A DNA stretch of 63,955 bases from Armatimonadota bacterium (GTDB lineage Bacteria; Armatimonadota; Fimbriimonadia; Fimbriimonadales; Fimbriimonadaceae), in contig JANNQV010000034.1 of NCBI GenBank assembly GCA_031400935.1, positions 1 through 63,955 on the forward strand, written 5' to 3'. Positions 27,346-42,070 of this stretch are shown here, piece after piece. The position numbers were made by a program, and so were the translations under genes. The first letter of the stretch is position 1; the number at the start of each line of letters is the position of its first letter. Under the pieces are notes generated by a model. It saw nothing but the letters and a program-made list of their open reading frames with translations, searched no databases and had not been told where the DNA came from.

Positions 27346-28461
27346 ATGACCGCGAAATACATCCATCAGCTTCCAGATTGGCCGGAATTTCGATTTGATG
27401 CTGCAGCGTTGCTACAACCTTTGACAATTGCTGCAAACAGCCAAGGACTGCTGATCGGCCGACTAGAAGGACTCGGTTTCGGTGAGCTTCAAGATGCCAA
27501 GCTTGAGGCAATCTCTGCCGAAGTGATCCAGTCCGGCGCGATTGAAGGCGAACGTTTGGACAACGACCTTGTCAGGTCGTCCATCGCTCGGCGATTAGGC
27601 ATTGACACAGCAGGCGTACCAAGCGGCGACCACCACGTGGAGGGAGTGGTTGAGATGGCAATTGACGCCGCGGACCACGCCGAACAAGTGCTAGATTCCG
27701 AAAGACTTTTCCGCTGGCAAGCAGGAATGTTCCCAAATGGAATTGGGCCGCATGGCCGAATCCGAACTGGTGACTGGCGCGACGATGCAAAAGGACCTAT
27801 GGTGGTAGCTTCTGGACCTGTTGGGCATGAGCGGATTCACTATGAAGCTCCGTTTGCTGAAAAACTTGAGAACGAAATGAAGTTGTTCCTAACATGGTTT
27901 GAAGCAGACCAGGGCCTCAACGGAATTCTCAAGGCCGGACTTGCACATTTGTGGTTTGTAACCATACATCCTTTCGATGACGGAAACGGCCGAATTGGCC
28001 GAGCAATCCTCGATATGGCGTTGGCAAGGTCCGACAAGCGCACTTGGCGATGCTACAGCGTCTCAGCCCAAATCGAACGCGAGAGAAAGAACTACTACGA
28101 TTCGCTCGAACGAGCGCAAAAGGGATCATTAGATGCTACGGAGTGGCTGTTCTGGTACACGGGCTGCCTGACTCGTGCGCTAAACCATGCCTCCGAAACA
28201 GTTTCCGGGGCCATTCATCGCACGAAATTCTGGTCAGTTCATGCTGAAACGAACCTCAATGAACGGCAACGCGTGGCAATAAAGCGAATGTTAATGGGAT
28301 GGGAGGGAAAAATGACTCGGAAAAAGTGGATGAAGATGTTCGAAATTGCGGAGAGCAGCGCAAAGCGTGACTTGTCAGAACTGGTGGAATACGGCATATT
28401 TCGAGTTAGCGAAGCTGGCGGTCGAAGCACGTCGTACGAACTACTTCAAACTTCCTACTAG
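27346..28461 (+). CDS. Fic family protein (DUF4172-Fic-HTH)
   Basis: 'YIHQLPDWPEF' N-terminus, canonical HPFDDGNGRIGR, C-terminal HTH 'AKRDLSELV...GGRSTSY'. Confidence 0.92.
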   Translation: MTAKYIHQLPDWPEFRFDAAALLQPLTIAANSQGLLIGRLEGLGFGELQDAKLEAISAEVIQSGAIEGERLDNDLVRSSIARRLGIDTAGVPSGDHHVEGVVEMAIDAADHAEQVLDSERLFRWQAGMFPNGIGPHGRIRTGDWRDDAKGPMVVASGPVGHERIHYEAPFAEKLENEMKLFLTWFEADQGLNGILKAGLAHLWFVTIHPFDDGNGRIGRAILDMALARSDKRTWRCYSVSAQIERERKNYYDSLERAQKGSLDATEWLFWYTGCLTRALNHASETVSGAIHRTKFWSVHAETNLNERQRVAIKRMLMGWEGKMTRKKWMKMFEIAESSAKRDLSELVEYGIFRVSEAGGRSTSYELLQTSY

Positions 28462-28527
28462 GAATCCATACAAACCTGATTTCGTAGCAGTACCCAGCTA
28501 CAGCTCACCATTCCCAGCAATACCCAT

Positions 28528-29586
28528 CTACTCTAACAACGAAATCTGTCCTGATTCCAACTCTAGAAGCCTCTGCTTTCGCCATATCCCGCCGCCGTAG
28601 CCGCAAAGAGTTCCATCGCTACGAATGACCCGATGACAGGGGATGAGGATGGCGATTCGGTTGTCGCCATTTGCCTTTCCTACTGCCCTTTGAGCATCTG
28701 GCTTGCCAATGTTTGCCGCCATTTCGCCATACGAGCGGGTTTCACCGTATGGAATCGCAAGCAGTTCCTTCCACGCTGATTCCTGAAACTCTGATCCCGG
28801 AGCCGAAAGTGGAACTGAAAATTCCTTTCGCTCACCCCGGAAATATTCACTCAGTTCCGTTTCCAATTGTTGAAGCAGTTTGTTCGAACCCGGAGCAAAA
28901 TGGCAGTCCAAACGTTTTTGCAGAGTCGTTACTTGTGCAGGAAGCATTCGCCTTTCAGCAAATTCGAGCAAAACTAGCGCTTCCGAAGTTGCACCTGCGA
29001 TCATAGGCCCTAGGGGAGTGTCAATCCATTTCAGCAGAACGGGAGTTTTGCCTCTTGCCATGCTTGGCGGAAATCCAAACGCCCTTTGAAAAGCGTCGCG
29101 AAACCCGCTGGTTGACTCAAATCCTGCATCCATAGCTGTCTCGATCACTTTTACACCGTTCCTCAATTGCGAAAACGCCTCACCCAATCTTCTTCCGCGG
29201 GCGAAGGCTTGAAAAGTCATTCCAAAGTTCTGTTTGAAGTATCTCCGAACACGAGAAGGCTCGATATTGTTCGACCGAAGGTCTCGATCTCGAATCTTAT
29301 GATCTGCCGATGATTCTACAAGTTCGATTGCGCTACGAACCCAAGTCGGCGTTATTGATCCGACTTCCAATGGTCGGCATAACTTGCACGGACGATAGCC
29401 TGCAAACACGGCTTCTCGGGGCAATGAAAAGAACTCGACGTTCTTGGCCAACGGCGTTCGGGCTTTGCATCCAGGGCGACAAAAGATTCTTGTCGTTTTG
29501 ACGGCGACAACAAAAATGCCTTCAAATTGGGAATCTGAATTAGCAACTGCATGATACATTTCGTCGAAACTTGGCAATAGAATCAT
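28528..29586 (-). CDS. ada: Bifunctional Ada: Zn-binding methylphosphotriester domain, AraC HTH, O6-methylguanine methyltransferase
   Basis: 'FCRPGCKAR', 'YRPCKLCRP', 'GFESTSGFRDAF', 'IPCHRV'. Confidence 0.95.
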   Translation of the reverse strand: MILLPSFDEMYHAVANSDSQFEGIFVVAVKTTRIFCRPGCKARTPLAKNVEFFSLPREAVFAGYRPCKLCRPLEVGSITPTWVRSAIELVESSADHKIRDRDLRSNNIEPSRVRRYFKQNFGMTFQAFARGRRLGEAFSQLRNGVKVIETAMDAGFESTSGFRDAFQRAFGFPPSMARGKTPVLLKWIDTPLGPMIAGATSEALVLLEFAERRMLPAQVTTLQKRLDCHFAPGSNKLLQQLETELSEYFRGERKEFSVPLSAPGSEFQESAWKELLAIPYGETRSYGEMAANIGKPDAQRAVGKANGDNRIAILIPCHRVIRSDGTLCGYGGGIWRKQRLLELESGQISLLE

Positions 29587-29758
29587 GAATTGAGAATACA
29601 CGCATTGCAATCTTGGCGACGCCGAAAAGTTGACAAGTATGTTGGAATGTGACTTGTCCGTCCCGCCAATGCAAAGATTTTGAAATGCGTCACGCTAGGG
29701 TATCCTTTGAACTTAGCCCGAACCGCCGAGTTGCGCGGGCAACAATTTCAAGGACCCT

Positions 29759-30268
29759 ATGCGAGTTAGAAACAAAGAAATGCGAGCGCGCCGACAACGA
29801 AAAGAAGAGCGCGTCAAACAAATTATCAAAGACATCAAGGCTGGAACTTATGTCAAGGCAGTAGCCGTAAAAGCTGAACCCAAAGTAAAGATTGAGCCAG
29901 TCAAGAAGCCAGTTGCGGTTAAGCCAGAACCGAAGCCAAAGGCTGAATCGAAGCCAGAGATTGAAACTGTTGAAGAAGCCGTAGCCGTTGAAGCAACGGT
30001 TGAGGCTATAGTTGTTGAGAAACCTGCGAAGGCAATAGCAGCTCCTAAGGCCGAAAAACCTGCCAAGGCAGTAGCAAAGCCAAAAGCTGAAAAACCTGCG
30101 AAAGCTGAAGCAAAGCCAAAAGCTGAAAAACCTGCCAAGGCAGTAGCAAAGCCAAAAGCTGAAAAACCTGCGAAGGCTGAAGCAAAGCCAAATGCAGAAG
30201 CGAAGCCAAAATCTGGAAAGCCTAAGGCCGCCACCGCAAAGCCAAAGAAAGCTCCTGCTAAAAAATAG
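29759..30268 (+). CDS. Lys/Ala/Pro-rich histone H1-like protein
   Basis: Basic N-terminal helix, then five 12-aa EKPAKA(V/E/I)AKPKA-type repeats. Confidence 0.7.
   Translation: MRVRNKEMRARRQRKEERVKQIIKDIKAGTYVKAVAVKAEPKVKIEPVKKPVAVKPEPKPKAESKPEIETVEEAVAVEATVEAIVVEKPAKAIAAPKAEKPAKAVAKPKAEKPAKAEAKPKAEKPAKAVAKPKAEKPAKAEAKPNAEAKPKSGKPKAATAKPKKAPAKK
30017..30196 (+). repeat. Coding tandem repeat, 5 x 36 nt (last four units alternate A/B, giving a 72-nt higher-order unit)
   Basis: gaaaaacctgccaaggcagtagcaaagccaaaagct / gaaaaacctgcgaaagctgaagcaaagccaaaagct alternating. Confidence 0.9.
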
Positions 30269-30291
30269 GCAATCGTCGGAATTCAAAAATC

Positions 30292-30323
30292 AAAAGAGCC
30301 ATCGCATTTGCGATGGCTCTTTT
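30292..30323. terminator. Bidirectional intrinsic terminator
   Basis: AAAAGAGCCATCGCA-TT-TGCGATGGCTCTTTT between convergent genes. Confidence 0.9.
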
Positions 30324-30343
30324 CTTGTTTCAAAAACGAGAAG

Positions 30344-31063
30344 CTAACCAGCCAATTTGGCAGTTGTAGTCGCATCGAGATGAACTCCAGGGCCCATCGT
30401 CGAACTCATCGTAATCGTCTTTATGAACTTGCCCTTTGCTGTTGAAGGCTTGGCCCTAATCAAAGCATGAAGCGCAACAAGGAAATTTTCCTTTATCTGT
30501 GCTTCGGTGAAGCTCGCTTTCCCAATTCCCATGTGCACCACGCCAGCTTTGTCAATTCGATATTCGACACGAGTTGCGCCCTTAATTTCCTTTACCGCTT
30601 GGCCGATGTTGCTAGTTACCGTTCCATTGCGCTTGTTGGGAGTCTTTGGGCCGAGCACTCGTCCAACTTTACCAAGTTGGGGAGCCATTTCATCGGTCGC
30701 CAATACCACATCAAAATCTTTGAACCCAGCAAGAATTTTCGCGATCAGGTCTTCATCGCCGACTACATCTGCACCAGCTTCCTCGGCTTCTTTTGCCAAT
30801 TCGCCTTTTGCGAGAACGGCAACTTTTTTGATTTTTCCAGTTCCATGAGGAAGGTTGGTAATTCCTCGAACGTTTTGGTCTGACTTTCGGGGATCAACTC
30901 CAAGTCGAACGGCCAAGTCAATGGACTCGGGGAATTTTGCGGTTGCAGACTTTACAACGATGCCAATGGCTTCGTCGAGTTCGTAGAATTTGGTCGCGTC
31001 AACCGATTTTGTCGCCTCAAGATAGCGCGGCGAATGCGCATTTTTACGTATGTTTTTTCTCAA
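30344..31063 (-). CDS. rplA: 50S ribosomal protein L1
   Basis: 'KFPESIDLAVRLGVDPRKSDQNVRG..LPHGTGK', 'LGRVLGP-like GRVLGPK', 'SSTMGPG'; TTG start with GAGG RBS. Confidence 0.97.
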   Translation of the reverse strand: MRKNIRKNAHSPRYLEATKSVDATKFYELDEAIGIVVKSATAKFPESIDLAVRLGVDPRKSDQNVRGITNLPHGTGKIKKVAVLAKGELAKEAEEAGADVVGDEDLIAKILAGFKDFDVVLATDEMAPQLGKVGRVLGPKTPNKRNGTVTSNIGQAVKEIKGATRVEYRIDKAGVVHMGIGKASFTEAQIKENFLVALHALIRAKPSTAKGKFIKTITMSSTMGPGVHLDATTTAKLAG

Positions 31064-31074
31064 ATTTTAACCTC

Positions 31075-31110
31075 GTGGTGCGGGCGTTCCAAGTTCATTG
31101 GAACTCCCAC
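31075..31110 (-). promoter_or_regulatory. Putative L1-binding autoregulatory mRNA leader
   Basis: Minus strand GUGGGAG-UUCCAA-UGAAC-UUGGAA-CGCCCGC-ACCAC immediately before the RBS; resembles the GUGGGAG...ACCAC L1-binding fold. Confidence 0.6.
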
Positions 31111-31335
31111 AAGATGGGTAAAGAATACCACATTGAGCCTGATGTCGGGTAACAAACTCTCGATTTTGGAAGAATTGAAAGGGACTTGACTAGAAAGATG
31201 CGCCCGCATACCGAAGGCGACTCTTGATGAGCGCTATCTAGAATTCTTGGCTAGCAAGCTCCTATGAAGTATCATTTGGCAAGAGATTGAGTCGAAAACT
31301 CAATCAATTTCAATTCAGCATCCCAAGATTCACTC

Positions 31336-31773
31336 ATGATTCGTAAAGCTCTTAAGGATTTCCAATGGGACGGCGTGGATGTCTTGCCCTACAAGGAAAC
31401 GGGCACTCATTTCAAGTCCATCTCACGCCAAACGCTTTTTGCTGACGGCGTTGACATCCCAGTTGAACTGCGCTATTTTGAGATTTTAGCGGACGGATAT
31501 TCGACCCTTGAACGGCACGAGCACGAGCATGTTGTCATGGTGATTCGTGGCTGCGGCGAGGTCTTTGTGGGTTCAAAAGTCACCGAAATTGGGCTTCATG
31601 ATATCGTGCATATCCCTCCGATGACGTGGCATCAGTTTCGGGCAAATCTGGGCGAACCGCTGGGGATTCTGTGTTTGGTTAGCTGCAAAAGAGATCGGCC
31701 TCAAAGGCCGGAAGGTGCAGATTTAGATCAACTTAGCGAGATTGATTCGGTTAGGGAGTTCTTAAGGGTATGA
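31336..31773 (+). CDS. Cupin domain protein
   Basis: 'STLERHEHEHVV...G.G', 'DIVHIPPMTWHQF'; overlaps the metY start (ATGA). Confidence 0.85.
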   Translation: MIRKALKDFQWDGVDVLPYKETGTHFKSISRQTLFADGVDIPVELRYFEILADGYSTLERHEHEHVVMVIRGCGEVFVGSKVTEIGLHDIVHIPPMTWHQFRANLGEPLGILCLVSCKRDRPQRPEGADLDQLSEIDSVREFLRV

Positions 31774-33053
31774 GTGCCCGCGAATTTGGATTTGAAACCC
31801 GAATGCTTCATGCCGGACAAATTCCTGATCCATACGTGGGTGCCCGTGCGACCCCAATTTACCAAACGACTTCGTATGTGTTTGGCGACACCGACGAGGC
31901 AGCTCACCTCTTTGAACTAAAGCAGTACGGCAACATCTATTCGCGAATTAGCAATCCCACGACTGCGGTTTTGGAAGAACGAGTGGCGTCTCTCGAGGGT
32001 GGAACGGGCGCTGTTGCCGTCGCAAGCGGCATGGCGGCTCAATTTGGCATGGTAATGACACTTTGCAGTCCGGGCGACCACATGGTTGCTTCGAATCAGC
32101 TATACGGCGGAAGTTTGACTCAACTTGCCCACACGCTCAAGAAATTGTCGGTGGAAGTGACATTCGTTGACCCTTCCGATATAAATGCCTGGGAAGCGGC
32201 GATCATTTCCAAAACTAGACTTTTGTTTGTCGAGACCATCGGAAATCCTGTCGGGACTATCGCCGACTTAGAGGCTCTCGGCAAATTGGCGAAGGCAAAG
32301 CACGTTCCGCTTGCCGTTGACAACACATTTGCAACTCCGTATCTATGCCGCCCGATTGAATGGGGCGCGACGATTGTGATACATAGCGCGACGAAATTCA
32401 TAGGCGGACATGGAACCAGCATCGGCGGAGTCGTGGTAGATTCTGGAGACTTTGATTTCTCGGAATTCCCTACCATAGCCGAACCTTCAGATTCGTATCA
32501 TGGGCTCAAGTTTTTCGATACATTTGGGCACTACGGATTCTTGATGAAGCTTCGTGCTGAGACGGTGCGAGATACGGGTGCGTGCATCTCGCCGTTCAAT
32601 TCCTTTTTGCTGTTGCAAGGGCTCGAAACGCTGTCATTGCGAATGGAAAGGCACGTTTCAAATGCTCAGGCGGTTGCAGAGTTTTTGGAAGCTCATCCCA
32701 AAGTTGCCAAAGTAAATTATGCGGGTTTGCCAAGCCATCCGCATTTCGATTTGGCAAAGAAGTATCTGCCAAAGGGTCCTGGGGCGGTTATGTCGTTTGA
32801 AATCAATTCGGGCACCGACGACGCTCGGTTGGCTGGCAAGAATTTCATCGAGTCGCTTGAACTGTTTTCGCATTTGGCAAACGTGGGAGATGCAAAGAGT
32901 TTGGTGATCCACCCCGGCTCAACAACGCATCAACAGCTATCGGATGCTGAATTGGAAGCTTGCGGAATTGCTGCTTCGACGATTCGGCTTTCTGTCGGAC
33001 TAGAAACAACGGAGGATTTGCTATGGGATTTGGATCAGGCTTTGGGGCACTGA
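31770..33053 (+). CDS. metY: O-acetylhomoserine aminocarboxypropyltransferase (sulfhydrylase)
   Basis: 'PIYQTTSY', 'YSRISNPT', PLP site 'HSATKFIGGHG', 'HLANVGDAKSLVIHP.STTH.QL'. Confidence 0.93.
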   Translation: MSAREFGFETRMLHAGQIPDPYVGARATPIYQTTSYVFGDTDEAAHLFELKQYGNIYSRISNPTTAVLEERVASLEGGTGAVAVASGMAAQFGMVMTLCSPGDHMVASNQLYGGSLTQLAHTLKKLSVEVTFVDPSDINAWEAAIISKTRLLFVETIGNPVGTIADLEALGKLAKAKHVPLAVDNTFATPYLCRPIEWGATIVIHSATKFIGGHGTSIGGVVVDSGDFDFSEFPTIAEPSDSYHGLKFFDTFGHYGFLMKLRAETVRDTGACISPFNSFLLLQGLETLSLRMERHVSNAQAVAEFLEAHPKVAKVNYAGLPSHPHFDLAKKYLPKGPGAVMSFEINSGTDDARLAGKNFIESLELFSHLANVGDAKSLVIHPGSTTHQQLSDAELEACGIAASTIRLSVGLETTEDLLWDLDQALGH

Positions 33054-33061
33054 CGAGTTTC

Positions 33062-33116
33062 AGCCCCCTCCTTTTAGCGAGGAACGAGCAAAGAGGAAGG
33101 GGTTGGGGGTGGAGTT
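33062..33116. repeat. GC-skewed palindromic element (intergenic copy)
   Basis: agccccctccttttagcgaggaacgagcaaagaggaaggggttgggggtggagtt; close sister copy at 46663-46715. Confidence 0.85.
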
Positions 33117-33184
33117 CCGGAAACGGCAAGTTTAACGTCCATCAATTCCGTTCAGGGTCTTTAGGTGTGGGTCATTTTTGGATT

Positions 33185-33280
33185 CTGGCACCCCTCCGGG
33201 GTGCTGAGATAGGGCGTGCTCTGAACCCGGAGTCTCACAGATTCGACTCCGGGCTATTAAGCTTCGATCCCTTCAGGACC
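33185..33280. repeat. REP-like multi-hairpin element
   Basis: GCACCCC-TCC-GGGGTGC (33188-33204), CCCGGAGTC-N10-GACTCCGGG (33226-33253), then TCC-CTTC-AGGA. Confidence 0.65.
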
Positions 33281-33326
33281 GTTTTTCGACAATTCGGATC
33301 GGGGCTCGAAATTGGGGTTCAAAATA

Positions 33327-33848
33327 ATGGAAAACATGATTAGTTGCGACATTAGACTCAACAGCGCGTTCACAAACGAGCAAAGGGCTCGTTACCAAAG
33401 TGCCAGCACAATTCAAAAACTGTTAAGAGATTCAAAGACAATCGCAATCGTCGGACTTTCAACGGAGAAAACGAAAGCCAGCAACATGGTGGGGTCGTAC
33501 CTTCAAGACGCAGGATATCGGGTCATACCGGTCCACCCCAAAGCCGATGAAATATTGGGTGAAAAATGCTATCCAACGCTCTTAGAGATTCCTGACAACG
33601 TGGACATCGTTGATATTTTCCGCCCAGCAAACGAGGTTCAAGGAATTGTCGAGCAAGCAATCCAAATTAAAGCAAAAGCAATCTGGATGCAGCTACGAAT
33701 TGTGAACTTTGAAGCCGCAGAGTTAGCGATTGAAAATAGACTTCATGCCATCGTGGATAAGTGCATCAAGATGGAACATGGAAGATACAGCGGGATGCTT
33801 CATTGGGCGGGAATGAATACGGAAATCATTTCTGCGAGGCGCCGATAG
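33327..33848 (+). CDS. CoA-binding protein (YccU-like)
   Basis: 'TIAIVGLS', 'GYRVIPV.P', 'VDIVDIFR', 'WMQL', 'DKCIKMEH'. Confidence 0.9.
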   Translation: MENMISCDIRLNSAFTNEQRARYQSASTIQKLLRDSKTIAIVGLSTEKTKASNMVGSYLQDAGYRVIPVHPKADEILGEKCYPTLLEIPDNVDIVDIFRPANEVQGIVEQAIQIKAKAIWMQLRIVNFEAAELAIENRLHAIVDKCIKMEHGRYSGMLHWAGMNTEIISARRR

Positions 33849-33885
33849 AATTGGCGCATTCCCAAACTACGCTGGAAATGGAACT

Positions 33886-34398
33886 TTGCTTTCTCAAATC
33901 CCGGTATTCTCTCCAAGTGTTGAGAACTCTGCGTTGGAAGTGGAAGCGCAGGTGACTAGGCAACAATGGTCGGTGCGAGTTCGCACCCAAAATGAACCTA
34001 CGGTCACCGCTCCTCTAAGAGGGGCTAATTTGTGTTTGCTCGACACCCTGAGCTTTGACCCAAAAGCAAAGCTCCCATGTTCTCTCGAATCGGCCCTTGC
34101 GTCGTATGGAGCCGACATAGTCACCGGATTCAAGCGCGTTTTGAATCAGAAACGTGTCGAGGTCTTTTCGATTGAAGCGGATGTGAAAGCCAGTGTTGAA
34201 AATCCGATGGTTCACATCGGAGTCGTTGGAGAATTCGGCTCTCCGAGAATCGATCAGATTCGGGCAACACTTTACGTCACAGCAAACTGCGAGAGAAATC
34301 TCCTTGAAACCCTTTTGGCGACCGTCTTGGAACGGTCGCCACTTCACCAAACCCTGATTCGAGCGACTGAAATTCAGGTTCGGCTCGTAAGCTCGTGA
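33886..34398 (+). CDS. OsmC/Ohr-fold protein (start uncertain; canonical catalytic Cys pair not evident)
   Basis: 'P.SLESALASYGADI...IEA.V...I.ATLYV...RSPLHQTL' follows the OsmC pattern P.E.LL.AL.(C)...(C)P....L. Confidence 0.6.
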   Translation: MLSQIPVFSPSVENSALEVEAQVTRQQWSVRVRTQNEPTVTAPLRGANLCLLDTLSFDPKAKLPCSLESALASYGADIVTGFKRVLNQKRVEVFSIEADVKASVENPMVHIGVVGEFGSPRIDQIRATLYVTANCERNLLETLLATVLERSPLHQTLIRATEIQVRLVSS

Positions 34399-35558
34399 GA
34401 AACACCATGTACAGACTCCAAACTGAAGACCAAAACTTGATCAACAAACTTGCCACTATCGCGGATTCAGCCATTGCACCCCATGCCGGCGACGTTGATG
34501 CGAACAGCCGTTTTCCAAAAGAAGCCCTGTCTGCACTTGCATCTGAGGGCTACTTTGGCTTGACCGTCCCGACCGACTTCGGCGGTCAGGGGAGAGGCCT
34601 CAGGGTTGCCGCCGCGGCGGTCGAGACTGTTTCACAGCGCGACGCAAGCGCAGGCATGGTCTTTTTGATGCACTTATGCGGAATCCAGGCGTACATCGCG
34701 AATCCAATCGCATGTGGCGACTATTTGCGCGCCGCAGCAAAGGGTGACCACCTTACGACTCTTGCCTGGAGCGAGCGAGGCAGCCGCAGCCATTTTTGGG
34801 CTCCGATGAGCGAAGAAACTCAGAATGGCGAAACGGTTTCTCTCAATGGCGTCAAGAGCTGGGTTACGAGTGCAGGTGAAGCGGATGGCTATGTGGTAAC
34901 AACGAGAGTTGCTGGCGCAGAAAGCCCAATGGCGATCACGCTATATACTGTGGAAAAGGGAGATTCTGGATTCAAAATCGAGTCTGCCTGGGACGCGTTA
35001 GGTCTAAGAGGCAATGCAAGTGCGCCGATGGTAATGCAAAACCTCACGATTCCAAAGTCGCGGGCAGTTTCGAACCCAGGACAAGGTATGGACATCATGA
35101 TGGGAGCAGTGCTTCCCATGTTTGCAACTGGCAACTGCGCATGTTCTATCGGTATTTCAGAAGCGGCATTTTCGGCTACCCAGGGCCACCTTGGAGCCTC
35201 GAAATTGCTGCATCTCAATCAATCGCTGCAAGACATTCCAGTTTTGCGAGACCGGTTGGCAAGGATGAGAATAAGAATTGACCAGGCGCGTTCGTACTTG
35301 GCAGATACGTTCGACAAGATCGAGTCAGGCGATCCCGCGACGATGCTGCATGTCTTAGGAACAAAGGCGCAGGGAGCGGAAGCCGTCTTGGAAGTAACAG
35401 ACATTGCAATGAGGGCTTGCGGAGGCGCGGCTTTCAGCAAGCACTTGAGCTTGGAGCGAAATTTCAGGGATGCTAGAGCTATGACTGTGATGGCGCCCAC
35501 AACAGATGTTCTGCACGATTTCATGGGCAAGGCTTTGCTCGGCATGGAGTTGTTTTAA
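34395..35558 (+). CDS. Acyl-CoA dehydrogenase-family flavoprotein
   Basis: 'LAWSE.GS', 'LNGVKSWVTSAG.AD', 'LGLRGN.S', 'GGAAF....LERNFRDAR'. Confidence 0.9.
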   Translation: MRNTMYRLQTEDQNLINKLATIADSAIAPHAGDVDANSRFPKEALSALASEGYFGLTVPTDFGGQGRGLRVAAAAVETVSQRDASAGMVFLMHLCGIQAYIANPIACGDYLRAAAKGDHLTTLAWSERGSRSHFWAPMSEETQNGETVSLNGVKSWVTSAGEADGYVVTTRVAGAESPMAITLYTVEKGDSGFKIESAWDALGLRGNASAPMVMQNLTIPKSRAVSNPGQGMDIMMGAVLPMFATGNCACSIGISEAAFSATQGHLGASKLLHLNQSLQDIPVLRDRLARMRIRIDQARSYLADTFDKIESGDPATMLHVLGTKAQGAEAVLEVTDIAMRACGGAAFSKHLSLERNFRDARAMTVMAPTTDVLHDFMGKALLGMELF

Positions 35559-36371
35559 ATGCCAGAACCAATTCAAATTGGCGCCGTAGCGTATGATGCC
35601 AAAGTTGTTGTGATCTGGGACATCATTCGGGAGTTTTTTGAAGCCGAAGGCGCTCCGATAGACTACACCCTATATACAAACTACGAAAAGCTTGTGGATG
35701 CGCTCCGAGCCGGACAAGTGGAAATTGCCTGGAATTCGCCTCTTGCTTGGGTAGATTCTGAACGAAGGCTTGCCCCAGGCTGTCGTGCGATCGCGATGCG
35801 CGACACAGACCAAGATCGCGTCTCGCACATATTAGTGCGAACCGATTCCGGAATCAATTCGATTGCCGATCTAAAGGGCAAAGCGGTCGGCTTTGGCGCG
35901 AAAGACTCGCCACAAGCAACACTCATTCCAATAGGGCTTTTGCTGCGAAACGGACTCTCAGAAGGTGCGGACTATACGGGCAAGAGATTTGATGTTCTTG
36001 TCGGCAAGCATGGCGACCATATTGGCGGCGAAAAGGACGCGCTGCAGGCCCTACTAATTGGCGAGGTTGACGCGTGCTGTTGCCTTGATTTGAATTGGGC
36101 ACTTTGGAGCCAAGATGGGACGGCGGACGCCTCTAAAGTTCGTATTCTTGCAACGACAGAGCAGTTCGACCATTGCGTTTTCACCGTCGCCCAGTCGTTT
36201 GATCGGGAACGAGAAGGACAATTTCTAGACGTATTGTTCCGTATGACATACGAAAATCCCGATCATCGCGAGATGATGGACATGGAAGGCTTGAGGGAAT
36301 GGAAAATCGGGCGGACATCTGGTTTTGGACCGCTGAATGAGGCTGTCGGCATGATGGGCTACTTCGAATGA
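35559..36371 (+). CDS. PhnD/SsuA/transferrin-fold substrate-binding-like protein without signal peptide
   Basis: 'NYEKLVDAL.AG.V.IAW', 'I.SIADLKGK.V.FG..DS'; no N-terminal h-region; His-rich 'GKHGDHIGGE'. Confidence 0.8.
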   Translation: MPEPIQIGAVAYDAKVVVIWDIIREFFEAEGAPIDYTLYTNYEKLVDALRAGQVEIAWNSPLAWVDSERRLAPGCRAIAMRDTDQDRVSHILVRTDSGINSIADLKGKAVGFGAKDSPQATLIPIGLLLRNGLSEGADYTGKRFDVLVGKHGDHIGGEKDALQALLIGEVDACCCLDLNWALWSQDGTADASKVRILATTEQFDHCVFTVAQSFDREREGQFLDVLFRMTYENPDHREMMDMEGLREWKIGRTSGFGPLNEAVGMMGYFE

Positions 36372-37507
36372 GCCTTCCCCTATTCCCTGTAACGACGGTA
36401 GGAAGCTGGCCTCGCCCGCGCGATCTAATTTTGGCGCAACGGCGCAAGCAAATTGGAACGATCACAGCCGAGGAGTTTGAGAAAGTTGCTGATGATTGCA
36501 TCGCGAATCTGATTCAAATTCAAGAACGGATTGGGCTAGATATTCTGACCGACGGCGAGCAGCGACGAGACAATTTCTATTCCTTTGTTGCTGAAAAGCT
36601 CGACGGCGTTCGCTTGATGACTCTTTCAGAGATGCTCGACCTCGTGGACGACCGGCAGGGATTCGAAGAGCTTCTGGACCGGCTCGACGTGCCCTCAACG
36701 GCTATCAAAAACCCGACGTGTGTGGGTCGAATTTCGAGGCGATCACCGCTTGCGGTTCACGAAGCGAAGTTCGTCAAATCGCTGACTAGCCGTCCGCTCA
36801 AGGTTCCGTTGCCTGGTCCTTACCTGCTCACAAGGGCTATGTGGGTTCCAGAGGTTGCAGGCAAGCACTACGACAGCAAGGAAGAACTCGCCGAAGATGT
36901 GCTGAAGATTTTGATCGAGGAAATTCAGGAGCTTGCTGACTTGGGAGTTGAGTTCGTCCAACTAGATGAGCCGGTTTTGACTGAACTTGTGTTCACGCAA
37001 GGGCAAACGCGAACGTTTATGTGCGCTGCTCTTGCTGCTAGAAAGGACCCGGCAGAAGAACTCGAATTCGCCGTTAAACTGATGAACCGAATTGCAGAAA
37101 GCACTCCCGCAACAGTTAGGCTTGGAATGCACGTTTGCAGAGGTAACTGGAGCACAAAGGAAGTGACTTTGCTATCAGGTAACTACGGCCCTTTGGAGCA
37201 GTACTTCGCTCGAATGAATGTTCAGCAGCTTGTTCTGGAATACGCGACACCACGCGCTGGCGACTTGATTACCTTTCCCGAAAAGGAACTTGGGCTTGGC
37301 GTTGTAAATCCTCGAACAGCGGAGATTGAAACGCCGGAAACGATTTGTGCTCGGATTGAAGAAGCCTTACAGTTTTGGCCCAAGGAAGCGATTTTTTTGA
37401 ATCCGGATTGTGGGTTTGCTACTTTTAGCGAACGAGAAATGAACTCGCAAGAAATCGCGGAGAGGAAAATGGAGTCAATTGTGGAAGCCGCAAGAAGGAT
37501 GAGGTAG
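36368..37507 (+). CDS. Cobalamin-independent methionine synthase II family (single-barrel MetE C-domain)
   Basis: 'TTVGSWPRP', 'TDGEQRR', 'VQLDEP', Zn ligands 'HVCRGN', 'LEY' and 'PDCGF'; lacks the N-terminal MetE barrel. Confidence 0.9.
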   Translation: MSLPLFPVTTVGSWPRPRDLILAQRRKQIGTITAEEFEKVADDCIANLIQIQERIGLDILTDGEQRRDNFYSFVAEKLDGVRLMTLSEMLDLVDDRQGFEELLDRLDVPSTAIKNPTCVGRISRRSPLAVHEAKFVKSLTSRPLKVPLPGPYLLTRAMWVPEVAGKHYDSKEELAEDVLKILIEEIQELADLGVEFVQLDEPVLTELVFTQGQTRTFMCAALAARKDPAEELEFAVKLMNRIAESTPATVRLGMHVCRGNWSTKEVTLLSGNYGPLEQYFARMNVQQLVLEYATPRAGDLITFPEKELGLGVVNPRTAEIETPETICARIEEALQFWPKEAIFLNPDCGFATFSEREMNSQEIAERKMESIVEAARRMR

Positions 37508-37579
37508 TTCAAAACTTTTCCCCATTCCTTCCCCATTTTGAGATTTCGACTACCAAACGGTGTTAAATAGCAGTTCCGA

Positions 37580-38233
37580 ATGACCCTCGATGATCTAAGA
37601 GTCCAAGCCTTGCAATGCACAGCGTGCCCGCTTTCTTCACGGAGGAGGAATGTGGTCTTTGGCGAGGGCAATCCGCGCGCGCCATTGGTGCTGGTCGGTG
37701 AGGGTCCTGGCGAAAACGAGGACGCGACGGGGCGACCTTTCGTCGGAAGAGCCGGCCAGCTCCTTGACAAAGCTCTGCTGGATTGTGGATTGACACGAGA
37801 GCATGTTTACATTTGCAATACAGTGAAATGCCGAGCGTGCGATTGGACGTCTGGGAAGCCTGTGAATCGCGCTCCAACTATTGAAGAAACCGATTCTTGC
37901 CGCCAATGGCTACTGCCTCAGCTTTCCTTGATTGCTCCGAAAGTGATTTTGTGCATCGGGGCTCCGAGCGCAAAAAACCTCATTAAAAGGGATTTCAAAA
38001 TCACTCAAGAGCGGGGGAAGTTTTTTCAATCGGAAATGTCTAAATGCATCATGGCCTGCCTGCATCCCGCATACATTCTAAGACAAATGAACATCTCAGG
38101 CGATGGTGGATATTCGCTGTTGGTGGCTGATATTGCTAAGGCGTGGGAGGCTGCGATTCGATTGCAAGTCAAGGATGAGCCCGACTCGTTGAAGAAAACT
38201 CAAGACGTTCCGCCTCAACATGTTCTATTCTAA
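37580..38233 (+). CDS. Uracil-DNA glycosylase family 4 (Fe-S)
   Basis: 'CTAC.L', 'VGEGPG..ED..GRPFVG.AG', 'N.VKCR', 'HPAYILR'. Confidence 0.92.
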   Translation: MTLDDLRVQALQCTACPLSSRRRNVVFGEGNPRAPLVLVGEGPGENEDATGRPFVGRAGQLLDKALLDCGLTREHVYICNTVKCRACDWTSGKPVNRAPTIEETDSCRQWLLPQLSLIAPKVILCIGAPSAKNLIKRDFKITQERGKFFQSEMSKCIMACLHPAYILRQMNISGDGGYSLLVADIAKAWEAAIRLQVKDEPDSLKKTQDVPPQHVLF

Positions 38234-38239
38234 GAGCAG

Positions 38240-39655
38240 ATGCGCGTCGCCGACCTTTTGAAACTTCTCGAAGAGTGTCCGATCGTCGCCTCGGTTCAGG
38301 CGGATGAGGGGATGCCGCTTGATTTCCCACCGACAATTTGGAGCCTCGCTGAGTCAAGTCTCAATCAGGGTGTTAAGGTGTTGAGGCTTCAAGGTACTGA
38401 GAACATTCGATATGTTCGACAGAGGTTCGATGGTCCGATTATCGGACTCATCAAGAAGCAGTATCCAGATTCTGAGGTTTACATCACGCCGACCGCAAAG
38501 GAAGTTGCAAGACTCATCGAACTTGGTTGCGAAGTGATTGCTTTCGATGCAACCCCACGACACCGCCCAAACAACGAATCCCTAAGCACGTTAGTAAAGA
38601 AGATTCACCAAGCTGGGAGACTAGCACTTGCAGATTGCGATTCATTGGAATCTTGCAGGTTTGCGGCCGATTCGGGTGCGGACATCTTGAGTACAACACT
38701 GTGCGGTTACACGCCGGATTCGCCTCCCGCTGTGAGCCCAAACTTCGAACTAGTGCGGGTTGCTATGGGGCTTGGCAAGCCAGTTCTGGCTGAGGGTCGT
38801 TACTCAGAACCTTGGCAAGTGGAAGTAGCTACGATGATGGGTGCGAAAGGCGTTGTCATTGGTGGGGCCATAAACGACCCAATCAAGCAAACCAAACGGT
38901 TTGTTTCGGCTGCCAATCACTTTTCGGGCCCGGTTGGAGCAGTAGATATTGGTGGAACATGGATGCGGTATGCGTTATTTGGCTTGGATGGCGAGATTGT
39001 TCGAAGGGAAAAAATTGAAACGCTTCCCACTGCGAAGGAGAGACTGGAATGGATTCAATCTCAGGTTCTACTAGATAAGGTTGAACGGGTTGGAATCAGT
39101 TCCGGCGGCACGGTTCATCCACACACGAATACTGTAATCGAATCCAAACCGTTCATTCCAGACAACGAGTGGTGCTGGTTCGACCGAATCTTTCCGTTGC
39201 CGAGAATCGGGAACGTCCAAGCCCTCAACGACGGCCTAGCCACTGCCTGGGGGCACTATTGCCACCCCCAATTCGCTGGAAGACGGGTAGCCACTCTGGC
39301 TTTGGGTACGGGAGTCGGATTCGGGCTTGTAGACAAAGGCCAAATGCTGATGGGGCAGCATGGCGGCTACCCAAGAATCAACGATATTCCCACTGTTTTG
39401 GGCGAGACCTTTGAAGAACTTCTCGGTGGTGCTGCACTGACTCCCGATCCAACTCCAACCCAGAAACTGCGAGCCATCGAAGCTGGCCATTGCGCCGTTC
39501 AATTGATCAACAGCCTGTACTATCCTGATGAAATCGTAGTTTGCGGAGGAGTCGGGCTATGCGATTGGATGGATTTGGGATTGCCGAAAAGCCCGTTTGG
39601 TGCGGATGCTGGACTCTACGGCGCGGCAGCACTAGTGCGGTTTCGGCCGTTTTAG
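38240..39655 (+). CDS. Fusion of N-acetylmannosamine-6-P epimerase (NanE) and ROK-family kinase
   Basis: N-half 'SVQA', 'PIIGLIK', 'VYITPT', 'TTLCGYT', 'AEGR', 'VVIGGAI'; C-half 'AVDIGGT', 'LND', 'LGTGVGFG', 'AGLYGAA'. Confidence 0.85.
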   Translation: MRVADLLKLLEECPIVASVQADEGMPLDFPPTIWSLAESSLNQGVKVLRLQGTENIRYVRQRFDGPIIGLIKKQYPDSEVYITPTAKEVARLIELGCEVIAFDATPRHRPNNESLSTLVKKIHQAGRLALADCDSLESCRFAADSGADILSTTLCGYTPDSPPAVSPNFELVRVAMGLGKPVLAEGRYSEPWQVEVATMMGAKGVVIGGAINDPIKQTKRFVSAANHFSGPVGAVDIGGTWMRYALFGLDGEIVRREKIETLPTAKERLEWIQSQVLLDKVERVGISSGGTVHPHTNTVIESKPFIPDNEWCWFDRIFPLPRIGNVQALNDGLATAWGHYCHPQFAGRRVATLALGTGVGFGLVDKGQMLMGQHGGYPRINDIPTVLGETFEELLGGAALTPDPTPTQKLRAIEAGHCAVQLINSLYYPDEIVVCGGVGLCDWMDLGLPKSPFGADAGLYGAAALVRFRPF

Positions 39656-39664
39656 GTCGTTTCT

Positions 39665-39735
39665 TGTTGCCAATGGCACAAATTCCAGTTAACCAATGAC
39701 CAATAACCAGCAACAAACAACCGGCAACCAACACC
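39665..39735. repeat. 7-periodic CCAATAA/CCAACAA-type tract
   Basis: taaccaa tgaccaa taaccag caacaaa caaccgg caaccaa. Confidence 0.7.
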
Positions 39736-39750
39736 GAACCATAATGATCC

Positions 39751-40950
39751 ATGAACTTGACACGAGAAAAACTAACCCAAGCCGCTGATCTCGTTGCGAA
39801 AAGCGAAGCTGACGTTTGGATCACTTTTGTTCGAGAAACAGCAAGCAATTCAGACCCAGTACTCCCATTGATACTCGAAGGCGGGCTCACTTGGCAGAGC
39901 GCAATGATCGTAACGAAATCTGGAAAGAAAATCGCTGTTTTGGGTAATTTTGATGCCGATCCGCTTATGGCAAGTGGCGATTGGGATGAAGTTATTCCGT
40001 ACATTCAGTCCATTAGAGAGCCGCTCCTAGAAGTTTTGGAGCGAGAAGTCGGTCCTGGCGGCAAGATTGCACTGAACTACTCAACAAATAATGACAAAGC
40101 CGACGGACTCTCTCACGGGATGTATCTAGCGCTCTGCAAGCATCTAGAAGGCACTCGTTTTGAGAATTCGATTGTCAGTGCCGAGACGATTTGCGGCGCG
40201 CTTCGAGGGTTGAAAACGCCGACAGAAATCTCTCGGATCAGAAAGGCACTTGAGGCGACCGACCAGATGTTTGAGGACATAAGCGAGTTTGCAAAAGTCG
40301 GAGTCACTGAGAGAGCAGTTTTCGACCATGTTCATCATTTAGCAAATGAACGCGGCCTCGGCTTCTCTTGGGATCCAAACGGCGACCCGATCGTAAATTC
40401 GGGTCCAAATTCAATGGTCGGCCACGGCATTCCGTCCGACCAAATTCGAATTGAGGCCGGACACATTTTTCATGTAGATTTGGGACTGTTGTGGGAAGGC
40501 TATGCATCGGATATTCAACGAAGCTGGTACGTTTCTTCGTTATCTGAAACCGAAGTACCCCATGACGTCCAACAAGGATTCGATGCTGTACACGGAGCGA
40601 TTTCGGCAGGGGCAACAGTTCTCAAAGGCGGTGTGTGCGGGTGGGAAGTTGATGCTGCTGCTCGTTCATTTTTGGTCTCTCAAGGTTATCCTGAATACAT
40701 GCACGCATTCGGCCATCAAGTAGGAAGGTTTGCCCACGACGGAGGCGCAGTCTTGGGCCCACGATGGGAGCGATATGGAAGCACTCCATTGACTCCAATT
40801 CAAGCTGGCGAAGTTTATACGCTAGAACTAGGAGTTGACATTCGGGGAAGAGGCTATTTGGGAATTGAGGAAATGGTTCATGTTACTGATTCCGGTATCG
40901 ATTGGCTTTCCGAAAAGCAGAACACGATCTGGGTCTTGCAAGGTTCCTAA
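39751..40950 (+). CDS. Xaa-Pro peptidase family M24
   Basis: 'LRGLKTPTEI', 'HVDLG...GYASDIQR', 'HAFGHQVG..HD', 'TLE.G', 'IEEMV'. Confidence 0.9.
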   Translation: MNLTREKLTQAADLVAKSEADVWITFVRETASNSDPVLPLILEGGLTWQSAMIVTKSGKKIAVLGNFDADPLMASGDWDEVIPYIQSIREPLLEVLEREVGPGGKIALNYSTNNDKADGLSHGMYLALCKHLEGTRFENSIVSAETICGALRGLKTPTEISRIRKALEATDQMFEDISEFAKVGVTERAVFDHVHHLANERGLGFSWDPNGDPIVNSGPNSMVGHGIPSDQIRIEAGHIFHVDLGLLWEGYASDIQRSWYVSSLSETEVPHDVQQGFDAVHGAISAGATVLKGGVCGWEVDAAARSFLVSQGYPEYMHAFGHQVGRFAHDGGAVLGPRWERYGSTPLTPIQAGEVYTLELGVDIRGRGYLGIEEMVHVTDSGIDWLSEKQNTIWVLQGS

Positions 40951-41005
40951 CAACCAATTCGCAACACCGTTCGTACTTTGGACGTAAAATCAAAACAACA
41001 GCTTT

Positions 41006-42070
41006 ATGAAAGATTTCGACCGCCGTTATCAACTCATCGTTTTTTGGGTTTTAGTCGCAATCATCATGATTGTTGCAGCCCTCATGCTCGAGCCATTTGT
41101 ACCGGCAATTGTCTGGGCTGTTGTTCTTGCAGTTTTGATGCACCCGCTCTTCCTAAAATTCGGGGGCGAAAAGAACCCAAATATGGCTGCTACAGCCACT
41201 ACTTTGGCTGCTCTCGGCATCATTGGCATTCCTCTCTTGTTGATTGGAGGAGTGCTTTTTGTCCAAGTCAATGGGTTTGTGCACGAATTCCAGGGAGGTG
41301 CCCCACCTGGACAGTCGGTTTTCGATTTGAACTACCTTGGAGCCGAACTTGACAGATCCCTCGGCCCAACAATCCACAACCTTTCGCCAAATTTCACATT
41401 TTCGGGTTGGATTGAGCAGAATCGAGACACAATCGCTGGATCTGTTTCAGCTCCGCTCGGCAAGGTACTCATTTCCTCCACGAAGGGAATTCTGACTTTT
41501 GTCGTCGCATTTTTGACAATGTTCTTTATGCTTAAGGATGGCAAGAGCCTGAAAGAGCCGACGCTTGCGCTCATACCTTTGCCACACGAAACCACTGAGA
41601 ATATTCTGCTCAAATTGGGCAAAACCATCCAAGCCGTATTCAAAAGTGTAGTTCTCGTTGGAATCGCGCAAGGAACGTTGGCAGGGCTTGCGTATTGGGT
41701 TGCTGGAGTTCCAAATTCGCTTATGTGGGGGGTTGCAACGGTGGTCCTTTGCATGGTTCCGCTGCTGGGCGCGCCGATTATCTATTTGCCGATGTCTTTC
41801 TTGCTTGTCATTCAGGGGCATTCGTGGCAAGGGATTGGTTTGGCGGCGTTTTGCTTGATTATTGTCAGTAATATAGACAACATCTTAAAGCCGTGGATTA
41901 TCGGCTCCGAAATTGATTTGCATCCGATGGCGGTGTTCTTTGCGTTGCTTGGCGGACTGTTGTTTTTCGGCCCAGTTGGGTTGATGGCTGGGCCGTTGGT
42001 TCTTACGCTAGTTTTGGCCGTTCATGACGTATTGAGAGAGCGAAGGAAGTTGGCTTCGGAGCCGATCTGA
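41006..42070 (+). CDS. AI-2E family transporter
   Basis: Multi-TM; 'IDNILKP.IIG...LHP...F..LGG...FG.VG...GP'. Confidence 0.9.
   Translation: MKDFDRRYQLIVFWVLVAIIMIVAALMLEPFVPAIVWAVVLAVLMHPLFLKFGGEKNPNMAATATTLAALGIIGIPLLLIGGVLFVQVNGFVHEFQGGAPPGQSVFDLNYLGAELDRSLGPTIHNLSPNFTFSGWIEQNRDTIAGSVSAPLGKVLISSTKGILTFVVAFLTMFFMLKDGKSLKEPTLALIPLPHETTENILLKLGKTIQAVFKSVVLVGIAQGTLAGLAYWVAGVPNSLMWGVATVVLCMVPLLGAPIIYLPMSFLLVIQGHSWQGIGLAAFCLIIVSNIDNILKPWIIGSEIDLHPMAVFFALLGGLLFFGPVGLMAGPLVLTLVLAVHDVLRERRKLASEPI

Follow-up and report, generated by a model that had tools for sequence, protein, structure and literature searches.

The known systems closest to the locus considered here are the zinc-binding C-terminal barrel of methionine synthase MetE and the core methionine synthases MesA–MesD (Price, Deutschbauer and Arkin 2021, PMC7857596). 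We analyzed a stretch of 63,955 nucleotides from an Armatimonadota bacterium (contig JANNQV010000034.1 of assembly GCA_031400935.1; hereafter the window), in which four adjoining genes at 33886–37507 encode an OsmC-like protein, a flavoprotein of the acyl-CoA dehydrogenase (ACAD) fold, a predicted cytoplasmic protein resembling the substrate-binding proteins (SBPs) of transporters, and MetE-II, a single-barrel MetE paralogue. MetE-II shares with the MetE C-terminal barrel and MesA–MesD the Meth_synt_2 fold, the H/C/E/C zinc and S/E/D homocysteine residues at identical positions, and the lack of a folate-binding barrel. It differs from them in an extra 13-residue loop with a cysteine that some homologues appear to replace by selenocysteine (Cys/Sec219), and in its partners, which are OsmC-like, ACAD and SBP-like proteins or TusA- and DsrE-like ones, instead of corrinoid proteins or MesX. 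The four-gene set is widely shared, is built around this MetE-like zinc enzyme, and, to judge by its genes and residues, probably makes or handles sulfur amino acids in an undescribed way.

MesD offers a partial parallel. The parts of PMC7857596 drawn on here describe it, with MesX, as a single-barrel MetE homologue that works with non-corrinoid accessory proteins in aerobes that usually also have MetH, with a flavin enzyme nearby, all of which resembles our locus. The accessory families differ, however, and those parts of the paper describe neither sulfur-carrier partners nor a Cys/Sec residue for MesD; in addition, the synthase activity of MesD is proven, whereas any such activity of MetE-II is putative. 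Close similarity to MesD begins, according to the same parts, at about 55% identity or more. MetE-II falls outside that range, matching the MesD structure 3rpd with only 89.3 bits (E 2e-24), compared with about 100–111 bits for full MetE. MesX itself (DUF1852, PF08908) had no match in the window's genome (95.6% complete) or in any of 14 control genomes.

A conserved four-gene module

Related loci were retrieved with the SBP-like protein alone, searching one genome per species, which yielded 59 loci at 51–89% identity. Their record titles place them in Armatimonadota, Verrucomicrobiota, Planctomycetota, Acidobacteriota, Myxococcota, Latescibacterota, Krumholzibacteriia, Chloroflexota, Actinomycetota (Rubrobacteraceae), Nitrospirae, and Bacillota. 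Tblastn with the window's proteins located an OsmC-like gene in 52 of the 59, an ACAD gene in 53, and MetE-II in 51. All four genes stand together in 42 loci, or 43 when the OsmC-like gene of L055, detected by Pfam only, is counted, and these cover about ten phyla. Only three of the 16 incomplete loci (L054, L057, and L059) lack a member despite clear flanking sequence; in most of the others the contig ends on the side where the missing member is expected, and in L061 MetE-II was not seen in the 2.1 kb beyond the SBP-like gene.

The order of the genes varies among loci (OsmC-ACAD-SBP-MetE, ACAD-OsmC-SBP-MetE, or OsmC-SBP-MetE-ACAD), and a changing order with kept linkage argues for selection on the linkage itself, which is far beyond chance. 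The genes at 33886–37507 are thus one conserved enzyme module, and the three genes that precede them in the window (cupin, MetY, and CoA-binding) are local neighbors, found beside the module in 1 of the 59 loci, its closest relative L005. Greedy clustering of open reading frames (ORFs) in the flanks revealed no further gene conserved across the 59 loci; as this clustering mis-calls antisense ORFs in GC-rich loci, we relied on tblastn and Pfam instead. In the window's phylum the module is rare and patchy, occurring in 7 of 251 sampled genomes, the window's own included. Together with the high identity across phyla, this distribution suggests a mobile accessory module.

A preliminary description of this DNA had proposed a seven-gene unit, within which the OsmC-like, ACAD, PhnD-like, and MetE-II genes would form an undescribed module. 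The four-gene module proved real, in 43 of the 59 loci across phyla, and we found no description of it in print, while the first three genes fall outside the conserved unit.

MetE-II keeps the zinc site and gains Cys219

By its profile matches, MetE-II is a single-barrel protein and not a folate-dependent full-length MetE. Meth_synt_1, the N-terminal folate-binding barrel, reaches only 21.5 bits against a cut-off of 27, over 37 residues, and the full-length MetE model TIGR01371 gives 131 bits against a cut-off of 930. The family is large, with 7,957 homologues at E ≤ 1e-10 among 8,000 candidates scored, the best 120 of which are all at least 62% identical. A FastTree phylogeny, whose clade placements are stated without support values, puts MetE-II in a tight clade far from E. 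coli MetE.

A MAFFT alignment maps S433, E484, D599, H641, C643, E665, and C726 of E. coli MetE (NC_000913.3), given as its substrate and zinc residues in the parts of PMC7857596 used here, onto S13, E64, D200, H255, C257, E291, and C348 of MetE-II. The zinc ligands of MetE-II would accordingly be H255, C257, E291, and C348, and its homocysteine-binding residues S13, E64, and D200. All seven are invariant in 33 of 33 family members, and because the whole site is conserved, the ligand of the zinc should be homocysteine-like.

Directly after the DEPxL substrate strand, residues 209–221 of MetE-II form an insertion with no counterpart in E. coli MetE in the same alignment. Cys219, within it, is invariant in all 33 Cys-type sequences. 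In HMMER alignments, the MetE of C. albicans has no such insertion and Listeria 1ypx has no cysteine there. The latter, a solved structure from a putative B12-independent methionine synthase family, is otherwise similar to MetE-II in length, shares the HxCRGN and LEY..R.GD motifs, and aligns over residues 8–374 with 110 bits. Cys/Sec pairs typically mark nucleophilic or redox-active residues, and from the Cys/Sec alternation in a loop adjacent to the active site we infer a catalytic role, nucleophilic or redox, for residue 219. The preliminary description had recognized a single-barrel protein with its zinc site, which stands, but it had overlooked this key residue.

Candidate selenocysteine forms of MetE-II

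Eight genome loci (L013, L024, L025, L029, L030, L031, L032, and L051) have exactly one in-frame TGA in MetE-II, always at the Cys219 column. In each of the eight, a hairpin resembling a selenocysteine insertion sequence (SECIS), with a 6-bp G+C-rich stem and a 6-nt loop, begins 15 nt past the TGA; the Cys version in the window lacks it. Five of six third-codon positions within the hairpin are invariant among the eight loci, compared with 0–3 of 6 in neighboring 18-nt windows. SelA and SelB scored above curated cut-offs in all five of the eight TGA-form genomes that were tested, and L031, when its TGA is read as selenocysteine (U), yields an uninterrupted protein of 380 residues that contains a single U and every zinc motif.

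In metagenomes, the TGA of 73 of 73 contigs with the motif lies within the reading frame of a MetE-II homologue whose similarity extends to either side of it; as the scan used the exact motif including the hairpin sequence, these contigs give no independent evidence on the hairpin. In the tree, Sec and Cys forms interleave inside one Verrucomicrobiota/Planctomycetota clade. The TGA forms constitute a candidate selenoprotein family that we have not found in print: no MetE-like selenoprotein was found in the text of selenoproteome surveys, of 2022 and 2026 reviews, or of a 2022 preprint on new families, supplementary tables being outside the scope of that search. Gene callers currently truncate these proteins.

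Sulfur-carrier partners of MetE-II

Persulfide relays of the TusA/DsrE (TusBCD) type end at a catalytic cysteine, for example in tRNA thiolation. A comparable arrangement is found in Verrucomicrobiota and Planctomycetota loci, where genes for TusA-like proteins, DsrE-family proteins (50.8 bits to Pfam), and TusA-OsmC fusions lie between the SBP-like and MetE-II genes, so that DsrE and TusA-like proteins with a conserved cysteine are encoded beside a Cys/Sec enzyme, occasionally with a desulfurase-like gene. The differences are that the end enzyme here would be a MetE-family zinc TIM barrel and not an ATP-dependent thiolase, that the TusA matches are just below cut-off, and that the window version has none of these genes.

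Of the 39 Sec-type metagenome contigs with more than 800 nt of flank, 37 have a TusA-OsmC fusion immediately upstream of MetE-II, and of the 30 with more than 1400 nt, 29 have a DsrE-like gene upstream. Within flanks of up to 3 kb of the 73 Sec-type contigs, an SBP-like gene was present in one and an ACAD gene in none. We also sampled 201 Planctomycetota genomes, of which 26 have a MetE-II family member (3 with TGA), 12 an SBP-like match, and 4 both. Ten of the 26 MetE-II loci were fetched: nine have adjoining DsrE-like and TusA-like genes (8 Cys-type and 1 Sec-type), and the tenth, L187, reads OsmC-SBP-MetE-ACAD with a Cys_Met_Meta_PP homologue (31% identity) upstream. The carrier genes also occur beside Cys-type MetE-II and are therefore not specific to the Sec form. 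As planctomycete MetE-II is mostly found beside TusA and DsrE, it is separable from the ACAD–SBP pair. Co-location in other genomes, which the preliminary description had suggested looking for, was thus evident from the side of the SBP-like gene (43 of 59 loci) but mostly not from that of MetE-II, where 22 of the 26 planctomycete genomes have no SBP-like match, which tells in part against the system that it had proposed.

Other sulfur-related genes recur near the module. Cysteine-desulfurase-like Aminotran_5 genes adjoin it in L047 and in L138, a metagenome locus whose ORF cluster recurs in L176; of these two, the Aminotran_5 scan covered L138. Rhodanese genes lie near it in L019 and L023. The recurrence of DsrE, TusA, desulfurase, and rhodanese neighbors suggests that sulfane sulfur is trafficked to or from MetE-II. 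Fusion proteins include one TusA-MetE-II (P0149) and one triple ACAD-SBP-MetE-II (P0145); the majority of the long SBP or MetE-II proteins have partial domains and occur as one sequence each, and hence are weak Rosetta-stone hints, except for a recurrent fusion of the SBP-like protein to a radical S-adenosylmethionine (SAM) domain.

Further neighbors were noted in individual loci. A PCC (PF03479) domain protein sits between the SBP-like and MetE-II genes in some Verrucomicrobiota (L013:2728-3144, L023:9254-9838, and also L019 and L021). An EgtB-like protein is found among the module neighbors, and in an acidobacterial locus (L028:10054-11376) a DinB_2 plus FGE-sulfatase protein, which we take to be the architecture of EgtB-type sulfoxide synthases, lies directly downstream. 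In Salipaludibacillus neizhouensis DSM 19794, the only cultured and named carrier seen, the genes directly upstream of ACAD-SBP-MetE-II-OsmC encode an alpha/beta hydrolase and all parts of an ABC transporter of the Opp/Dpp type, with SBP_bac_5, two permeases, and two ATPases (L055:563-6475).

The ACAD-fold, SBP-like, and OsmC-like proteins

The ACAD can be aligned with solved ACADs from end to end. In 3pfd, the YEG motif corresponds to M366-A367-P368, which places Ala367 at the glutamate, and the 'ER' glutamate of isovaleryl-CoA dehydrogenase 4o5m corresponds to F243. The YEG glutamate and the helix-G glutamate of isovaleryl-CoA dehydrogenase are the two known catalytic-base positions of ACADs. 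As both are non-acidic here, this is not an ordinary acyl-CoA dehydrogenase, a possibility that the preliminary description had named as damaging to its module. The 'vMAPt.D' motif is kept in 51 sequences. Among its NCBIfam matches are 3-sulfinopropanoyl-CoA desulfinase, at 120 bits, and SfnB, at 82 bits, neither of which comes near its cut-off.

The AlphaFold2 model of the SBP-like protein (predicted local distance difference test score, pLDDT, 96.5) has its first strand at residues 5–10, which leaves no room for a signal peptide; the protein should therefore be cytoplasmic, in agreement with the preliminary description. Its top Foldseek matches are the oxyanion binders PtxB, PhnD, HtxB, ArrX, and AioX at 13–20% identity, with E of 1e-22 and template-modeling (TM) scores of about 0.74 for PtxB and PhnD. 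It shares fold and profile with the periplasmic ABC binding proteins PhnD and PtxB, but not their signal peptide or their permease and ATPase genes: no transporter gene stands beside it in the window, and none recurs in the 59 loci. With 111 representative clusters at E ≤ 1e-30, the family is a compact one. Its invariant polar residues in 42 sequences include R81, D82, D84, D116, S117, Q119, H151, D153, E158, H205, and C206, and this unusually dense His/Asp/Glu/Cys set would suit an enzyme or a metal site better than a transport receptor.

The OsmC-like protein shares the Pfam OsmC domain, above cut-off, with the OsmC/Ohr thiol peroxidases, and an ESM Atlas lookup returned only generic OsmC clusters. 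It differs in its catalytic positions, where Cys59 and Cys125 of E. coli OsmC (NC_000913.3) correspond to Asp77 and Ser151. Among 47 family members, the Cys59 column holds Asp in 42 and Glu in 5, and the Cys125 column Ser in 32, Ala in 14, and Gly in 1. No column has Cys in 30% or more of the members, so that the family has no conserved cysteine. Fusion of the domain to a TusA-like one is seen in some lineages.

Relation to the Rv1679–Rv1681 cassette

The best NCBIfam models for both the ACAD and the SBP-like protein belong to the Rv1679/Rv1680/Rv1681 cassette, which likewise has an ACAD gene followed by an SBP-like one. The ACAD matches NF049984 (Rv1679 family ACAD, FadE16) with 397.9 bits, under the cut-off of 600, and the SBP-like protein matches NF049985 (Rv1680 family) with 217.3 bits, under the cut-off of 400. 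The window's locus differs from this cassette in these below-cut-off scores, in joining the pair to OsmC-like and MetE-II genes, and in having no radical SAM partner: the radical SAM domain of P0126 had no tblastn match in the window's genome, and no such gene was seen in the window region.

Elsewhere, the pair has other companions. ACAD, SBP-like, and Rv1681-type radical SAM genes form trios in Chloroflexota (L101:7078-9959 and L102:7036-9944), SBP-like/radical SAM fusions are recurrent (P0123–P0130), their radical SAM half matching NF049973 (Rv1681 family) in Chloroflexota, and in four actinobacterial loci the ACAD–SBP pair occurs alone. The pair is a self-contained unit that combines with different end enzymes. 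We considered a radical SAM gene as an anaerobic replacement of the ACAD and ruled this out, as both co-occur in L101 and L102. Papers that mention Rv1679/Rv1680-type locus names carry them in neither title nor abstract, and at that level we found no functional study.

A proposed sulfur relay and its alternatives

We tentatively propose, at a probability of about 0.38, that Cys/Sec219 covalently relays sulfane sulfur at the zinc site of MetE-II to form homocysteine. Residue 219 would take up the sulfur as a persulfide or selenopersulfide and swing it onto the zinc, where a C–S bond to a C4 amino-acid precursor would be made. The homocysteine product would then be methylated by the organism's split MetH. 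In this role MetE-II would be a relay-fed counterpart of MetY, independent of free sulfide. In many lineages, the sulfur would arrive through TusA-like, DsrE-like, and TusA-OsmC proteins, sometimes with help from a nearby cysteine-desulfurase-like or rhodanese gene. In the window version, a sulfur oxyanion or an anionic organosulfur compound would be its source, and would be acted on by the base-less ACAD together with the cytoplasmic oxyanion-binding protein of PhnD/PtxB fold and the OsmC-like protein that lacks the cysteines.

The intact zinc/homocysteine site, the Cys/Sec alternation, and the sulfur-carrier neighbors together favor this relay. The adjacency of ACAD, SBP-like, and MetE-II genes that survives rearrangement, the match of the SBP-like fold to small-oxyanion binders, and the missing catalytic base of the ACAD also count for it. 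What the sequences show directly is the conserved module, its residues, the Cys/Sec alternation with the SECIS-like hairpin, and the partner genes; the nature of the relayed group as sulfur, the carbon substrate, the reaction's direction, and what the ACAD and SBP-like proteins do are inferred from these. A methyl relay through Cys/Sec219 was also considered as the main mechanism and was demoted on chemical grounds and in view of the sulfur-carrier partners.

Several points weigh against the relay, and its probability is kept low because it has no precedent in the MetE family. To our knowledge, no MetE-fold enzyme performs a thiolation, and all characterized members alkylate a thiol that is already present. 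The carbon substrate of the C–S bond and the roles given to the ACAD, SBP-like, and OsmC-like proteins are conjectural throughout. The TusA-like assignments are weak and sub-threshold (24.2 and 28.3 bits against a Pfam cut-off of 28.6, with the cysteine conserved), and tblastn found no TusA/DsrE cassette of this type in the window's genome, so that the sulfur link here rests on homologues. The ACAD–SBP pair also occurs without MetE-II, for example with the Rv1681-type radical SAM gene. The adjoining MetY in the window and L005, and its distant homologue in L187, would fit homocysteine as the substrate of MetE-II equally well. Finally, the LysR regulators beside four metagenome cassettes recall the metR–metE arrangement.

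These last two points are shared with the main alternative, that MetE-II is a fifth folate- and cobalamin-independent (core) methionine synthase, which methylates zinc-bound homocysteine; we regard it as somewhat unlikely. The ACAD, SBP-like, and OsmC-like proteins would then make or carry the methyl donor in a flavin-dependent and probably oxygen-dependent way, as is thought for MesX and a nearby flavin reductase with MesD, and Cys/Sec219 would assist, for instance by transiently accepting the methyl/methylene group or by protecting the redox state of the zinc site. The complete set of zinc and homocysteine residues agrees with this, since diverged non-synthase relatives lose such residues according to the parts of PMC7857596 used here, and the same parts supply the MesD precedent, in which an accessory protein and oxygen are needed, often near a flavin reductase and mostly alongside MetH.

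The methionine-synthase background of the carriers is compatible with a synthase but does not single it out. In the window's genome, MetE-II is the only Meth_synt_2 gene, and MetH is split over two contigs, with a homocysteine plus pterin half of 647 residues (C61:74211-76154) and a B12-binding plus reactivation half (C27:265695-266993; L064, L066/L068). We screened 48 module genomes, corresponding to 48 of the 59 loci with 11 short loci left out; completeness values are not given for the genomes reached through loci, and absences among them are soft. An S-methyl_trans (MetH-type) gene is present in 47 of the 48, full-length MetE in 2, split MetE in 1, and neither form of MetE in 45. These numbers recall the MesD/MesX pattern. 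The baseline for MetE in the window's phylum is itself only 8 of 251 genomes, however, which argues against reading complementarity into these counts, and a complementary distribution of module and MetE was rejected as uninformative for this reason. One genome, G031 (10 Mb, completeness unknown), has no match to S-methyl_trans, Meth_synt_1, or Met_synt_B12, with the module's MetE-II as its only Meth_synt_2 match. It is the only candidate for a genome in which the module is the sole synthase and, with its completeness unknown, is too weak to use as such.

Two further methionine-related genes were seen in passing. The window's genome encodes a YitJ-like fusion of a homocysteine S-methyltransferase domain with methylenetetrahydrofolate reductase (C15:1608-3443; L065). 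In an Armatimonadaceae metagenome-assembled genome with the module, MetH lies in several pieces in different frames (G034:C113:29378-32949), as a pseudogene or through indel errors of long-read assembly.

More specific evidence for methyl transfer did not emerge. Neither in the window region nor in 8 related loci did the module prove to be linked to a gene of one-carbon (C1), folate, or SAM metabolism, and an Rfam scan of those 8 loci gave nothing at gathering score, with no SAM or B12 riboswitch there or in the window region. The preliminary description had the module recover a methyl or methylthio group for methionine synthesis, and nothing that we found points to it. Against a synthase also stand the recurrent TusA, DsrE, desulfurase, and rhodanese partners, which have no role in methyl transfer, the poor methyl-donor chemistry expected of a thioether or selenoether on residue 219, and the rarity and patchiness of the module in its phylum.

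A second alternative is that MetE-II is a salvage or repair reductase, whose zinc binds a form of homocysteine or methionine that has been oxidized or conjugated, for example to a mixed disulfide, persulfide, S-sulfonate, or sulfoxide. This substrate would be attacked by Cys/Sec219, and the adduct would be resolved by TusA-like or DsrE-like thiol proteins or by the flavoprotein. Cys/Sec alternation is a hallmark of thiol oxidoreductases, to which nearly all prokaryotic selenoproteins belong according to the parts of PMC13188914 used here. The partners include cysteine-bearing proteins, an OsmC-fold (peroxiredoxin-fold) protein, and a flavoprotein, and AhpC/TSA and CMD (AhpD-like) genes adjoin the module in L008 and L049. 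TusA and DsrE, however, are known to act as sulfur carriers and not as general reductants, the OsmC-like protein has no conserved cysteine, no thioredoxin or thioredoxin reductase is linked, and the oxyanion-binding protein would have no role unless the substrate were an S-sulfonate or sulfinate. On balance, we consider such a reductase improbable.

That the four genes are chance neighbors (an ordinary fatty acyl-CoA dehydrogenase, a stray binding protein from a transporter, a peroxidase of the stress response, and a MetE fragment acting on its own) is essentially excluded: each protein does fall in a generic Pfam family, and MetE-II and the ACAD–SBP pair each occur without the other, but the conserved co-occurrence despite order changes, the overlapping coding regions and fusion proteins, the missing catalytic residues of the ACAD and OsmC-like proteins, and an SBP-like protein with neither signal peptide nor adjoining transporter genes in the window leave it very little room.

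Returning to the proposed sulfur relay, its fullest version would make MetE-II(Cys/Sec219) a new homocysteine-forming zinc TIM barrel that relays sulfane sulfur without cystathionine or free sulfide, an unlisted selenoprotein family, and, with the ACAD/PhnD-fold pair, which also makes up the actinobacterial Rv1679/Rv1680-type cassette, the recipient of a new two-protein desulfurizing feeder; this combination is rather unlikely to hold in every part. If the relay is true, it would represent an unrecognized branch of sulfur amino-acid metabolism in soil, freshwater, and marine bacteria, with carriers that include Armatimonadota, Verrucomicrobiota, Planctomycetota, Acidobacteriota, Myxococcota, Chloroflexota, and some Bacillota and Actinomycetota. 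Cys/Sec219 would be a putative catalytic residue absent from every described MetE-type enzyme, and the module is linked to an uncharacterized ACAD/SBP-like(/radical SAM) cassette that has NCBI models and for which we found no functional study. Whether MetE-II forms homocysteine by relay or is a fifth cofactor-independent synthase, pathway-reconstruction tools would need a new rule, and the predicted cobalamin and sulfur dependence of these phyla would change.

Layout of the locus and neighboring genes

The ORF coordinates and Pfam assignments (Table 1) agree with the seven co-oriented genes of the preliminary description, and the letters at the junctions confirm the couplings that it had reported among the last four: GTGA at 34395–34398 (OsmC-like/ACAD), TAA directly followed by ATG at 35556–35561 (ACAD/SBP-like), and ATGA at 36368–36371 (SBP-like/MetE-II). 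A further ATGA overlap joins the cupin and MetY genes. Gaps of 258 nt between MetY and the CoA-binding gene (counted to the TTG start of the latter) and of 37 nt between the CoA-binding and OsmC-like genes mean that the layout does not establish a single seven-gene transcript or operon. MetY possibly provides functional context for the module.

Table 1. Coordinates of the module, its upstream neighbors, and the Cys219 features of MetE-II in the window
Feature	Position	Strand	Details
Cupin_2 protein	31336..31773	+	145 aa; Pfam 37.1 bits; local neighbor outside the conserved module
MetY-type O-acetylhomoserine sulfhydrylase	31770..33053	+	427 aa; Cys_Met_Meta_PP; TIGR01326 (O-acetylhomoserine/O-acetylserine, OAH/OAS, sulfhydrylase) 604.6 bits, cut-off 495.1; local neighbor
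CoA_binding_2 protein	33312..33848	+	Pfam 129.6 bits; start uncertain; local neighbor
OsmC-like protein	33886..34398	+	170 aa from TTG start, true start uncertain; Pfam OsmC 30.4 bits, cut-off 27.5
ACAD-fold flavoprotein	34395..35558	+	387 aa; three Pfam Acyl-CoA_dh domains
SBP-like protein, PhnD/PtxB substrate-binding fold, predicted cytoplasmic	35559..36371	+	270 aa; Pfam Phosphonate-bd PF12974 113.6 bits
MetE-II, single-barrel MetE paralogue	36368..37507	+	379 aa; Pfam Meth_synt_2 PF01717 119.7 bits, cut-off 21
Family-specific 13-residue insertion of MetE-II with Cys219	36992..37030	+	residues 209–221; gap in E. coli MetE
Cys219 codon	37022..37024	+	TGC; TGA (predicted selenocysteine) in some homologues, by aligned column

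Promoter and terminator consensus scans gave site numbers no higher than in shuffled sequence, and an Rfam scan of window positions 27000–42000 at E up to 1 gave no credible match and hence no regulatory clue. The 258-nt intergenic region between MetY and the CoA-binding gene (33054–33311) has several inverted repeats visible by eye, with no Rfam match at E up to 1 and no terminator-like site called.

Upstream of the cupin gene lie a DUF4172-Fic protein (27259–28461) and a full-length Ada with Zn-binding, AraC helix-turn-helix, and methyltransferase domains (28528–29610), neither with a visible relation to the module. Between Ada and ribosomal protein L1, a 198-residue ORF on the minus strand (29690–30286) has no Pfam or NCBIfam match. 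Downstream of the module, a family-4 uracil-DNA glycosylase (37580–38233) precedes a 471-residue fusion of a NanE-type N-acetylmannosamine-6-phosphate epimerase domain with a ROK kinase domain (38240–39655), and both genes also follow the module in L005.

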